From a virus (taxonomy: Duplodnaviria > Heunggongvirae > Uroviricota > Caudoviricetes): a stretch of 64,000 nt of DNA. The stretch lies in the IMG/VR virus record IMGVR_UViG_3300028887_000066, positions 32,001 to 96,000 of that record. One strand, given 5' to 3'. Made by a program: the position numbers and the translations under genes. The notes beneath the pieces were generated by a model. That model was not told the DNA's origin. It worked only from the letters and a program-made list of their open reading frames with translations, and searched no databases. Of the stretch, positions 22,978-26,445 are shown one piece after another; position 1 is the stretch's first letter; each line of letters begins with the position of its first letter.

Positions 22978-23526
22978 TTAATGCCTTTGTTTTTTCTTAT
23001 CTTTCTTTTCCTTGTCTTCCCTTGCCCGTCCTAACTTTTCCTTTAACATCTTCATCACCGATTCAGGATGACCATTTATGTCATGTTCCCAAATCCTTAT
23101 CAATGGTATCCCGTTCATCAGACACCATCTTGTTTTTTCTTTATCTACCCTGTGATTCCGTTTTTGGGTCGGGTTCATTTCCTCATAAATAAGCCCGTAT
23201 GCGTGCCAATAGTCACCATCGATTTCAAGGGCAAGATTCTCATTCGGACAATAAAAATCAAGGTATCGTCCTATAGATGCCATTCTGAACTGATAAATGT
23301 ACTCCACACCAAGTTTGTCAAGAAAATTCTTTGCAAATCTCACCTCAAGTTCGGATGTGCCGTATTCTGGATGCTCCTTATCCTTCTTCTGCTGAACCAC
23401 GGTGCTTTTCCTAACCTTCAATAAACGGTCATCTTTCACCCTATTAGGGTTAACGGGATTGTTTTTGTTTACTTTTTTAGGTTTTTTCTTGTGTTCCTTT
23501 ACTCCTTTTCTTATCGGTTGTGCCAT
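22978..23526 (-). CDS. Vsr/DUF559-like PD-(D/E)xK endonuclease
   Basis: TSELE..YQF..LDFYC..LEIDGDYWH..D..K..GIPLIRIWEHDI; basic N-terminus. Confidence 0.85.
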   Translation of the reverse strand: MAQPIRKGVKEHKKKPKKVNKNNPVNPNRVKDDRLLKVRKSTVVQQKKDKEHPEYGTSELEVRFAKNFLDKLGVEYIYQFRMASIGRYLDFYCPNENLALEIDGDYWHAYGLIYEEMNPTQKRNHRVDKEKTRWCLMNGIPLIRIWEHDINGHPESVMKMLKEKLGRAREDKEKKDKKKQRH

Positions 23527-23674
23527 AGAATAACCTGTCCATTGCTTCTTCCTCTTCTGAGGCTTTCCTTATTATTTCGTCCCTTTCATTGATCAATGAT
23601 TGGTATCCTGCACATTTTTCATCCATTGTTGAAAGCACATTTTCCACCAAATTCAACTGTTCTGCCCTATTCAT
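23477..23674 (-). CDS. small hypothetical protein
   Basis: 65-aa helical ORF directly downstream of the structured RNA; overlaps the nuclease start. Confidence 0.5.
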   Translation of the reverse strand: MNRAEQLNLVENVLSTMDEKCAGYQSLINERDEIIRKASEEEEAMDRLFYGTTDKKRSKGTQEKT

Positions 23675-23700
23675 AGTTATATTTTACTGTTATTAAAATT

Positions 23701-23815
23701 TAGGCAATTACGTACTTTTTGACCCCAAAAGGTCTAAAGATTTACCGTGTTGACGTTTCATAGGGAGGCTCAATGCCTTTACCCTCACCGTCCTTGCGCC
23801 CACTTGCCTATGGGC
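23701..23815 (-). ncRNA. structured RNA with pseudoknot and kink-turn, resembling an IS200/IS605/IS607 TnpB omega-RNA (orphan)
   Basis: GC-rich island in an AT-rich gap. Hairpin GCCCA/TGGGC whose loop TAGGCAA is complementary to the terminal TTGCCTA; GACG/CGTC and GGG/CCC stems joined by a K-turn pattern; AGGC/GCCT and GACC/GGTC hairpins. Confidence 0.65.
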
Positions 23816-23872
23816 TGTTATTTTTCTTACATTTTGTAACTATAGGTCTAATAGTATATAGTTATTAAAAAT

Positions 23873-24211
23873 TTATTTCATATATTTAGTAAAGAACGGA
23901 TTGTCTTTCATTGTTTCTATTAGCATTTCCTCATCCTTGCAATATTGCTCGAATAATATTGCATCGGACGGTGATAGCCTGAACCACTCTCCTATTCCGC
24001 GTTTCTGTGCAAACCTGTTATGCAGTTTTCTTTCAATGAAAAACGGGTATTTGGTATAGTATTTTTTGTACAGGTATATTTCACCGCAGTTTCCCGTCTG
24101 TAGTTTTTTTATCCTTTCAGACACGTCACCACGTGTAACACCTATCTTATACATTCCGTCATTCAGAAAATCCTTCAGCAGATATACGAAACCGCCAACT
24201 TTTGACTTCAT
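23873..24211 (-). CDS. GIY-YIG nuclease, T5orf172/MUG113 family
   Basis: GFVYLL..YKIGVT..RIKKLQTGN..IERKLHNRF..GEWF; likely start MKSKV at 24211. Confidence 0.88.
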   Translation of the reverse strand: MKSKVGGFVYLLKDFLNDGMYKIGVTRGDVSERIKKLQTGNCGEIYLYKKYYTKYPFFIERKLHNRFAQKRGIGEWFRLSPSDAILFEQYCKDEEMLIETMKDNPFFTKYMK

Positions 24212-24334
24212 AGCACTATTTATATAAAGAATAGGTGAATTTCTTTTATAGTAAATAAAAAGAAGTTGACTTTTCATGTATTTATATCTATATTACAATA
24301 AAAAGACGATAAAACAAATTCAATTCAATAGGAT

Positions 24335-24733
24335 ATGAAGAAGGATTTTACAAGTGATTTCCATGAGATTACGGAAATGACAAACAAGATACGCTCGATA
24401 AATGAGACTATAGCATTCGGAGATTCATACTGTGAGGAAGATGATAAATTCGCCGCAGACAATGCCCAATTTGAAATGGGTGATGACGAAGAGACCGCAG
24501 GGCAAGCAGACCTCGCAAAGATGCAGCAGCCTGAGGAAGAGAAAACTGATGAGGAAAAGGCAATGGAAACAGAAGGTGGTGCAAATGCCGTCAATCAAAT
24601 CCGTGAAATTGCATTGAAAGGCATGATTGCTCTCTGCAATACTCCAGAAGAACCTTTATATCAAGTCCTCAAGAAGGTTTTCACTATGATAGACAAGGCC
24701 GTTGACAAGAGCGACGAAGAACAGCCTAAGTAA
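24335..24733 (+). CDS. acidic hypothetical protein
   Basis: 132 aa; TATTTATA at 24279-24286; followed by a hairpin at about 24760-24793. Confidence 0.7.
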   Translation: MKKDFTSDFHEITEMTNKIRSINETIAFGDSYCEEDDKFAADNAQFEMGDDEETAGQADLAKMQQPEEEKTDEEKAMETEGGANAVNQIREIALKGMIALCNTPEEPLYQVLKKVFTMIDKAVDKSDEEQPK

Positions 24734-24774
24734 TAGAATATATATGCAAATAAACTAAAAAATGGCACTCATGT

Positions 24775-26445
24775 TCATTCACGAGTGCCATTCTTGTATA
24801 CATATCTCAATAACCCACAGTCCCATATCTTACAATATCCCAATTTATCCGCCATCTGTGCCTCGGTCATTGACATAGGAAGCCCGTATCTGAAATTAAG
24901 ACCCTTTTTCCTGAAATTGAATTTATGTACTCTCTTAATTGGATTGTTCCTGTTTATGTATTTGTAGTCAGGTTTCAGCACACCATCCAATACAAACCCT
25001 AACTTGGTGTATATATTGTTTTCTTCATCCATCGTCCACCTTCTATCAGCAAACGACTTTACAATAAGCGGGCTTTTCTCCCTTAAAAAGTGCTTGAACA
25101 GTTTTCCACCCACACCACAGCATACGTACCTGTAGTCTGTTGCGAACCTGACCAATTCCCACTCCTCTTTTCTTTGGATGAAGCTCATAACACCTATCAG
25201 TTCATCATTGAAGTACGCCCCGTATGACACAGTACCCTTTCCATATCCCTGTATGTGGTATCTCTCAAGAAACTCCTGTGCTACCCATTTTTCTATTTCC
25301 CTTACTACGCACTTTCTTGCATATATTTTATCTTTAACTCCGTCTTTTCCTATAATATGAAGTATCTTATTGAACACGAGGTCTTTATCCTTATTGAATT
25401 CATCCTCGAATATATGAATTATCCTTACACCCTTCTTCAAAGCATCTTCAGTCTTCTCCAAGTGATATACCGAATCTTTTCCGAATTCCTCTGAATGCCA
25501 TTTCAGACCATTATACTCAATGCCTATCCTTAGTGACTTGATATATATGTCAATCTCCCTTCCATCCAATATTTCCCTGTCTCTCTTGACCACATCATCC
25601 TCTCCAAGATGCCATGTAAGAAAGTCATAGATTTCATTTTCGGCATTAGATAACACAACGGCACAATGCGGGCAACCATGTCCGTTCAATTGATCATATG
25701 GTCTCTGATAAAATACACCGTGTTTCGGACACACGATTTTCATTGGTTGCTTGAAATCTATGTAGTCCTCTTTATTATAAATGTATTTATCTCCTTGTGT
25801 TTTTTTAACCCTCTCAATAAATTCCTCAAATGTAACTTTATGTTTTTCACATCTTTTAATTATTCCACATTTAGGGCATCCTTGTTTCTTTGATAGGTGT
25901 TTACTTGGTGTCATCCAAAATTCACCGTGTATCGGACAAATGATACATACTTTTTCATGCATTTTATGGAATACAACTTTAGAATAGTCATACTTGTCAC
26001 CGTGTACTCTCTTGAACTCCTCTATTAAACTATCGGTTGTCCTATATTTTCCTTTACATTTAGGACATCCTTGTTTTTGACAATTAACATGGGCTGATGG
26101 TGTCATCCAAAATTCACCATGTTCAGGACAGATGATACACACCTTAGTCATTTGATTTACGTATTCTACTTTAGAATAGTCATATTTATCTCCGTGTATC
26201 TTTCGTGCCTTCTCAATAAACTGTTCAAGGGTGTCTCTTAACCCCCTTTTTAAATTTGCGCATTTTGGGCAGTTATAACCTCTTACATGTGCGGCAGGCT
26301 CTTGCCAAAACTCACCATGTTCAGGACATATTATTCTCATTTTAACCGATGATTTTACATATGTATTTTCATCATATCGGTATTTATCTCCATGTACCTT
26401 TCTTGCTTTTTCTAAAAAAGCTTCAAAACCCGTCTTTTTTGTCAT
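24775..26445 (-). CDS. Hef-like free-standing homing endonuclease: 4 Zn-ribbon (DUF723-like) repeats + Vsr-like nuclease + Mom-like GNAT domain
   Basis: Four HGDKY..ICP.HG.F..P..H..CP.C repeats; EIDIYI..GIEYNGLKWH..IHIFEDE; then YARKC..HIQG..ELVRFA..GGKLF..SFADRRW..Y.KLGF. Confidence 0.8.
   Translation of the reverse strand: MTKKTGFEAFLEKARKVHGDKYRYDENTYVKSSVKMRIICPEHGEFWQEPAAHVRGYNCPKCANLKRGLRDTLEQFIEKARKIHGDKYDYSKVEYVNQMTKVCIICPEHGEFWMTPSAHVNCQKQGCPKCKGKYRTTDSLIEEFKRVHGDKYDYSKVVFHKMHEKVCIICPIHGEFWMTPSKHLSKKQGCPKCGIIKRCEKHKVTFEEFIERVKKTQGDKYIYNKEDYIDFKQPMKIVCPKHGVFYQRPYDQLNGHGCPHCAVVLSNAENEIYDFLTWHLGEDDVVKRDREILDGREIDIYIKSLRIGIEYNGLKWHSEEFGKDSVYHLEKTEDALKKGVRIIHIFEDEFNKDKDLVFNKILHIIGKDGVKDKIYARKCVVREIEKWVAQEFLERYHIQGYGKGTVSYGAYFNDELIGVMSFIQRKEEWELVRFATDYRYVCCGVGGKLFKHFLREKSPLIVKSFADRRWTMDEENNIYTKLGFVLDGVLKPDYKYINRNNPIKRVHKFNFRKKGLNFRYGLPMSMTEAQMADKLGYCKIWDCGLLRYVYKNGTRE

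Follow-up and report, generated by a model that had tools for sequence, protein, structure and literature searches.

The omega-RNA of the TnpB nuclease of the insertion sequence (IS) ISDra2 has a functional scaffold of 116 nt, in which stems 1-4 and a pseudoknot stand right before the guide, and the 5' 115 nt of the RNA are dispensable (PMC10097598). Protein-less elements that encode omega-RNAs and depend on TnpB in trans have already been described (Meers et al. 2023, PMC10055086), as have DDE-associated TnpBs with inverted repeats and solo TnpBs that are mobilised in trans (Altae-Tran et al. 2023, PMC10691335). The RAGATH-18-derived RNAs of IS607 TnpBs contain pseudoknots, and a kink-turn/E-loop has been proposed for their invariant nucleotides (PMC11061315). 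Here we describe a protein-less mini-element of 165 bp on the minus strand of a 64,000-nt stretch of phage DNA, hereafter the window, which corresponds to positions 32001-96000 of the 356,121-bp IMG/VR virus record IMGVR_UViG_3300028887_000066 (G000). The window belongs to the genome of a jumbo phage. The unit is very probably the omega-RNA/right-end module of a TnpB-carrying transposon minus its tnpB, and it may still be usable in trans.

The window RNA resembles the omega-RNA of ISDra2 TnpB (IS200/IS605; 8EXA, 8H1J, 8BF8) in the order of its parts: first a 5' hairpin whose loop forms a pseudoknot with the last nucleotides ahead of the guide, next a long irregular stem containing non-canonical pairs, then another stem, and finally a flank-derived guide. 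From P1 through the pseudoknot, the scaffold is 115 nt long in the window copy compared to 116 nt in ISDra2, with counterparts of stem 1, the pseudoknot, stems 2/3 and stem 4. The window copy differs in having no adjacent tnpB and no sequence match to Rfam omega-RNA-type families, and its element family has inverted repeats and 8-bp duplications, whereas IS605 elements have asymmetric hairpin ends and no duplication. The palindrome-associated transposable elements (PATEs) of the IS605 group are likewise gene-less miniature transposon derivatives that keep an omega-RNA for a TnpB encoded elsewhere (PMC10055086), but PATEs have IS200/IS605 ends, a Y1 TnpA and no duplication, whereas the window element, which is part of a phage genome, has an 8-bp duplication and ends that are probably IS1595-type inverted repeats. 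DDE-associated TnpBs (PMC10691335) are similar in that TnpB and omega-RNA lie inside symmetric-ended DDE transposons, with tnpB less than 250 bp from the end and with non-autonomous copies sharing the ends of autonomous ones; in contrast, the main text of that study names IS630, not IS1595, and an omega-RNA-only derivative is not described there. The RAGATH-18 RNAs are also TnpB guide RNAs with pseudoknots and a possible kink-turn (PMC11061315), but they form a separate RNA family (no cmscan match at E <= 10) and belong to an IS607 serine recombinase element. A protein-less omega-RNA mini-element is an already known kind of element; less described is the combination with IS1595-type ends, in which the tip of the repeat is a pseudoknot strand. 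A literature search for TnpB together with IS1595 returned no paper linking them.

Fold and homologues of the window omega-RNA

The RNA features listed in the original prediction for this locus were all found on the minus strand, at the coordinates given there. The parts of the fold are as follows.

23815-23798, minus: P1 hairpin, GCCCA/UGGGC; helix 1 of the covariation analysis (93% paired, 4/5 pairs changed on both sides); equivalent of ISDra2 stem 1
23810-23804, minus: 5' strand of the pseudoknot, the P1 loop UAGGCAA, 7/7 Watson-Crick with UUGCCUA
23752-23793, minus: kink-turn (K-turn)-like stem; GGACG/CGUC helix, GUGA opposite UAU-GAAA, GGG/CCC helix and apical hairpin; strands GGACG-GU-GA-GGG (23793-23782) and CCC-UAU-GA-AA-CGUC (23765-23752); helices 3-5
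23778-23775 and 23769-23766, minus: apical hairpin AGGC/GCCU, read from the sequence
23739-23731 and 23724-23715, minus: arms of the right-end hairpin CUUUAGACC-UUUUGG-GGUCAAAAAG, at the stem 4 position
23707-23701, minus: 3' strand of the pseudoknot, UUGCCUA; helix 2 (90% paired, 6/7 pairs changed on both sides)

The folding energy of the unit is near chance (minimum free energy z = -0.96). Rfam gave no match across the whole window at the gathering score and nothing relevant over 23400-24100 at E <= 10; the IS605-orfB, RAGATH-18 and HEARO families, which the original prediction had put forward for comparison, gave no match at either threshold. The evidence for the RNA must therefore come from its homologues. 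A pattern scan of IMG/VR identified eight viral loci, of which three are orphans and five have a tnpB whose end falls within the motif or just ahead of it; the TnpBs of those five loci are 60-63% identical to the TnpB encoded by the window phage itself. Of the 80 tnpB loci recovered by a protein-based search, every one in the range of 56-63% identity has the module of P1, K-turn-like stem, right-end hairpin and pseudoknot. The module lies directly 3' of tnpB in L003, L007-L011 and L026-L045. More distant tnpB relatives retain a recognisable GUGGAG...GAAAC core. Among GTDB genomes there were two true matches, both orphans in Bacteroidales metagenome-assembled genomes (MAGs), and a blastn search of GenBank phages returned nothing beyond one chance 26-nt match. 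At the position of the right-end hairpin, a hairpin of differing sequence occurs in every long-type homologue, and it is missing in the short-type copies L002, L003, L004 and L006.

Covariation, suggested earlier as a check on the fold, was assessed in an alignment of 21 homologues over five helices including the pseudoknot (24 pairs), with 500 shuffles and slid helices serving as controls. Paired cells amounted to 88.6% versus 75.0% in the shuffles, and 17/24 pairs were changed on both sides versus 10.1 in the shuffles. None of the 500 shuffles reached the observed values, and the slid controls were 37-51% paired. The helix of the K-turn-like stem covaries (ACG/CGU, CUG/CAG, GCG/CGC, CCG/CGG), and the pseudoknot occurs in at least eight forms, including GGCAA/UUGCC, GGGAA/UUCCC, GGUAA/UUACC, GGAAG/CUUCC, GGGAG/CUCCC and GAGGU/ACCUU. 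An unbiased best-complement search recovered the same pseudoknot pairing in most sequences. This covariation supports a real structured RNA with the predicted fold, pseudoknot included. Of the kink-turn that had been proposed for the long stem, the bulge and G.A motif (CCC-U-R-U-GAA) is present and invariant in 21/21 sequences and fits the K-turn consensus as CCC-UrU-GA opposite GA-GGG, with GUGGA in place of GUGA in some relatives; the K-turn fold itself is not provable from sequence alone.

A covariance model built from 15 copies scored the window copy at 84.7 bits, compared to 78-97 bits for tnpB-linked copies, and found exactly three full copies in G000. The likeness to a TnpB omega-RNA that had first been remarked on turned out to be true homology, as the same module directly follows tnpB in phage contigs and follows the phage's own tnpB. 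By this homology, the window RNA is a predicted orphan member of the TnpB omega-RNA, right-end module.

IS1595-type ends and the insertion in the window

Complete elements were found by scanning for the inverted repeat, and their contents were typed by Pfam and PHROG. The tnpB elements of the family carry inverted repeats of ~25-30 bp (GGnAAy.ATATAC..GTTGAC), many with perfect 8-bp duplications; IS1595-type transposons generate 8-bp duplications. Perfect 8-bp duplications were present in relatives L024, L028, L031, L037, L041, L140, L143, L154, L157, L184 and L194.

L028: tnpB element, duplication TTAAAAAA
L031: tnpB element, duplication TAATATAT
L037: tnpB element, duplication TAAATAAT
L041: tnpB element, duplication TATGCTAA
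L024: mini-element in a Bacteroidales MAG, duplication AAAATAAA
L140 4945-7428 and L194 2685-4884: autonomous elements with a DDE_Tnp_IS1595 + Zn_ribbon_IS1595 transposase
L157 9438-11553: 2,116 bp with a perfect TTATATTA duplication; GIY-YIG homing endonuclease (PHROG 7168/5123) + TnpB + omega-RNA
L143 7371-7984 and L154 585-1486: small open reading frames (ORFs) with a common RLTESDL N-terminus
L184 1541-1705: 165-bp miniature inverted-repeat transposable element (MITE), no gene

The elements of L140, L143, L154, L184 and L194 reside in large phages. One of the two autonomous IS1595 elements carries a BspA-type leucine-rich repeat cargo gene, and L157 is a single transposon with two different homing-type nucleases. 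Judged by these ends and contents, the TnpB/omega-RNA module of the window's clade rides on IS1595-type ends. IS200/IS605-type ends, which are asymmetric subterminal hairpins without a duplication, were considered and dropped because inverted repeats and 8-bp duplications were found.

In this family, the tip of the inverted repeat (UUGCC in the window copy) is at the same time the 3' strand of the omega-RNA pseudoknot that pairs with the P1 loop. The window strand UUGCCUA (23707-23701) combines the extreme end of the terminal inverted repeat (TIR) on the right with the first 2 nt of the duplication, and the right-end hairpin takes its 3' arm from further inside the same repeat. Because the repeat tip doubles as a pseudoknot strand, the transposase site cannot evolve independently of the RNA fold.

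In the window, the element and its surroundings are arranged as follows. The upstream gene encodes a protein of the T5orf172 family, and the downstream gene is a 65-codon ORF (ORF65).

23868-23875, minus: left copy of the duplication, TAAATTTT; holds the TAA stop codon of the T5orf172 gene
23703-23867, minus: whole protein-less mini-element, 165 bp; left-end-like remnant, omega-RNA scaffold and right-end inverted repeat
23845-23867, minus: left-end-like remnant TAATAACTATATACTATTAGACC, resembling the family left end GGGAAyTATATAC..TTGAC, with a degenerate, non-consensus tip
23695-23702, minus: right copy of the duplication, TAAATTTT, a perfect 8-bp match to the left copy
~23700-23683, minus: presumed guide, flanking DNA made up of the duplication and the ORF65 leader; directly after the pseudoknot, as in ISDra2 (PMC10097598)

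The right end of the window copy is homologous to the right ends of the TnpB elements and matches the inverted repeat of the IS1595-type family; its reverse complement ranks second in a genome-wide nhmmer search with the left-end profile. In size it parallels the L184 MITE of the same TIR family, which is likewise 165 bp. The near-direct repeat that had been noticed around the unit was confirmed as TAAATTTT(T)AATAAC at 23875-23861 and 23702-23689, and each version of it is single-copy in the 356-kb genome with one mismatch allowed. Without the 165 bp and one of the octamers, a spacer of 29 nt would separate the T5orf172 stop codon from the ORF65 ATG; this and the 8-bp duplication indicate that the two genes were already in place when the unit inserted between them.

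An IS1595 transposase (PF12762) was not found in G000-G003, which are the window phage and three others with the same TnpB element family, so mobilisation would need a host-encoded or co-infecting transposase. The mini-element would be doubly non-autonomous, requiring an IS1595 transposase in trans to move and TnpB in trans to act. It is probably immobile, since the phage is without an IS1595 transposase and the left end looks degenerate.

The resident TnpB and possible use of the RNA in trans

The window contains no tnpB, as the original prediction had stated, and the sole tnpB of the genome lies at G000:196945-198060 (L003 1585-2700, minus). This 371-aa ORF has the domains HTH_OrfB_IS605, OrfB_IS605 and Cas12f1-like_TNB, and its closest solved relative is ISDra2 TnpB (full-length alignment, E = 4e-74). 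The invariant residues D189, E273 and D355 of the RuvC D-E-D triad and four zinc-finger cysteines are kept, and the resident TnpB is predicted to be catalytically intact. It is without the C-terminal extension of its 406-411-aa relatives. The core of its omega-RNA starts 41 nt past the tnpB stop codon and is of the short type: both the right-end hairpin and the inner inverted repeat are missing. Upstream of the resident tnpB, which may be an immobilised or domesticated copy, a left end was not seen.

A search for further copies in the genome, advised when the RNA was first noticed, gave two more full copies and one truncated scar in addition to this one tnpB. Besides the copy behind the resident tnpB, there is an orphan (L002) at G000:309494-309622, upstream of an NAD synthase gene, which shares 90% identity with the resident right end across 130 nt. 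The scar, a 5'-truncated right end at G000:338562-338618 that turned up in the left-end profile search, abuts the start of a minus-strand gene. The window RNA and the resident omega-RNA have an identical GGACGGUGAGGG...CCCUrUGAAACGUCAA core. The guides of all three full copies are unique and match only their own flank in the genome, with no second target.

The window guide had been thought to cover the translation-initiation region of ORF65. It does occupy the upstream leader, 9-28 nt before the ATG (23674), but it does not cover the start codon. This placement, together with the fact that a structured insert parts two co-transcribed genes, would suit a TldR-like regulatory guide acting on the ORF65 leader, or a cis-acting leader that modulates ORF65 and the Vsr-like gene behind it. 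We regard such a role as very unlikely. The resident TnpB is not a TldR, because it retains the RuvC triad and so is not nuclease-dead, and a TldR guide would be expected to have a second target, which none of the guides has. Any right end that lands in an intergenic spacer has the leader of the next gene as its guide, so the placement needs no special cause; moreover, where the element is present, the repeat tip has replaced the original sequence in front of the target. Conservation of the locus was not found either, among IMG/VR relatives or in a metagenome scan.

As a working model for the mini-element, we propose transcription by read-through from the T5orf172 gene, since a promoter of its own was not recognised. 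The RNA would then load onto the phage's single TnpB (G000:196945-198060), and the flank-derived guide would direct cutting of genomes without the insertion, such as those of co-infecting relatives. Such cutting would help the element to be retained or copied, as in the TnpB homing model (Meers et al. 2023, PMC10055086).

Several observations weigh against this interpretation of the unit. The window scaffold is of the long type and the resident one of the short type, and their cores are only 69% identical, so the resident TnpB may not recognise the window RNA. The left end is weak, with 14/22 positions matching the reverse complement of its own right end and a genome-wide nhmmer E = 42. The direct repeat of 14-15 nt exceeds an 8-bp duplication, which leaves the extra 6 nt (AATAAC, 23694-23689) unexplained. 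Inspection of the sequence around the unit revealed no recognisable Bacteroidota-type promoter or terminator. Finally, an insertion-free allele was not found: exact metagenome searches for the empty site ATGAAATAAATTTTAATAACAG and for the right flank gave 0 matches but are uninformative, as the phage itself was not found there, and IMG/VR holds no relatives of the T5orf172 protein or ORF65, and hence no syntenic empty site. On balance, use of the window omega-RNA in trans by TnpB is plausible, though we hold it to be somewhat short of probable.

An inert scar of the same origin has a nearly even chance. Its RNA would not be made discretely or would not be recognised by the resident TnpB, and the scar would persist because it is recent and harmless. 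The degenerate left end, the different scaffold subtype and the missing promoter and terminator all suit such a scar, as do the guide that matches its own flank alone and the presence of other decayed remnants in the genome (the truncated scar at G000:338562-338618 and the orphan right end L002). It is less easily reconciled with the state of the RNA. None of the five helices is disrupted, nor is the invariant K-turn-like motif; all 7 pseudoknot pairs are Watson-Crick, the full equivalent of the minimal scaffold is present, and the model score equals that of tnpB-linked copies. In addition, the unit directly follows an expressed-looking gene in the same orientation, and an intact TnpB whose own omega-RNA has the identical core is encoded in the same genome.

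A wider role, in which the phage's one TnpB uses dispersed omega-RNAs (its own, the L002 orphan and the window copy) as a multi-guide homing/exclusion system in co-infection, is conceivable but in our judgement unlikely.

Two short-type orphan omega-RNAs in two different phages, L112 (G002:78632-78701, minus) and L004 6542-6619 (minus), lie downstream of homologous genes. Both have a Bacteroidota-type promoter (TTTG-N20-TAtaTTTG) that ends ~7 nt before P1 and an intrinsic terminator ~28 nt past the pseudoknot, and they look like stand-alone guide-RNA genes. Across four phage genomes, the sole match of the L112 guide is its own flank.

Neighbouring nuclease genes and implications

The RNA unit sits within a run of co-oriented homing-endonuclease-type genes. 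It had been described as following a GIY-YIG gene and preceding a Vsr-like nuclease, and Pfam bears out both families, as T5orf172/MUG113 and DUF559, respectively. The genes are the following.

Within 22978-26445, minus: DUF723/HNH-type gene, 556 aa, a member of the island
23873-24277, minus: T5orf172/MUG113 (GIY-YIG superfamily) gene, 134 aa; Pfam MUG113 1.4e-14, T5orf172 3.3e-9; upstream of the RNA in the same orientation, with the RNA directly behind it
23477-23674, minus: ORF65, 65 aa, ATG at 23674; downstream of the RNA; no family match
22978-23526, minus: DUF559 (Vsr-like) homing-endonuclease-type gene, 182 aa; Pfam DUF559 1.3e-4, PHROG homing endonuclease 9.5e-21

Protein family searches placed T4-like tail-tube and baseplate genes near the RNA unit in the window, and it is between these that the three homing-endonuclease-type genes (556 aa, 134 aa and 182 aa) form an island at 22978-26445. 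Many paralogous fragments of the 556-aa DUF723/HNH-type gene occur in related phages. Between this gene (minus) and a 132-aa acidic ORF (plus, 24335-24733), a strong 16-bp hairpin at 24758-24795 with T-runs on either side is probably a bidirectional terminator. The T5orf172 gene was also considered as transposon cargo, and this was rejected because no left end was seen upstream of it and it is unrelated to the GIY-YIG cargo of L157.

Adjacency is the only evidence at the locus for the proposal that the RNA was co-opted by its T5orf172/GIY-YIG or DUF559/Vsr-like neighbour as a new RNA-protein system. Elsewhere, the L157 IS1595-type element, which carries a GIY-YIG homing endonuclease with TnpB and omega-RNA, might be taken as a precedent; however, that endonuclease is unrelated to the window T5orf172 protein and travels with TnpB. 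Six other orphans (L004, L005, L006, L022, L024 and L112) have unrelated neighbours, and phmmer searches with five window proteins found no match there. The 8-bp duplication shows insertion into the 29-nt spacer of an existing gene pair, and IMG/VR yielded no relatives of the T5orf172 or ORF65 genes, with or without the RNA. Because orphans occur elsewhere in unrelated contexts and the guide matches its own flank only, a link to the GIY-YIG and Vsr-like genes is not supported, and we consider co-option exceedingly improbable.

The clustering of three homing-endonuclease-type genes also brings to mind a group I intron, or an IStron, a kind of element that joins introns with TnpB elements. The chance of this is negligible, as Rfam gave no intron match even at E <= 10, no host gene is split, and the element is fully explained as a transposon end and a target duplication. 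Among the three options that the original prediction left standing, a non-autonomous IS remnant fits best, a trans-acting guide is possible given the intact tnpB in the same genome, and co-option by a flanking nuclease did not hold up. We are confident that the unit is an IS-derived omega-RNA mini-element without a functional tie to the flanking nucleases.

The analysis settles the nature of the orphan RNA beside nuclease genes: it is a TnpB guide RNA of transposon origin rather than part of a new RNA-protein system. Protein-less derivatives with a complete minimal scaffold are found in jumbo phages and in Bacteroidales genomes, and their compact scaffolds (~78-115 nt) may interest genome editing. 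Whether TnpB acts in trans as a phage homing endonuclease could naturally be tested in a phage like this one, which has a single TnpB alongside several orphan guides. If the phage does use its orphan guides in this manner, they would cut relatives without the insertion and drag neighbouring genes, here the homing-endonuclease island, into them. The promoter-bearing orphans L004 and L112 of related phages would then be dedicated guide genes, a step towards a CRISPR-like guide array derived from transposon ends.

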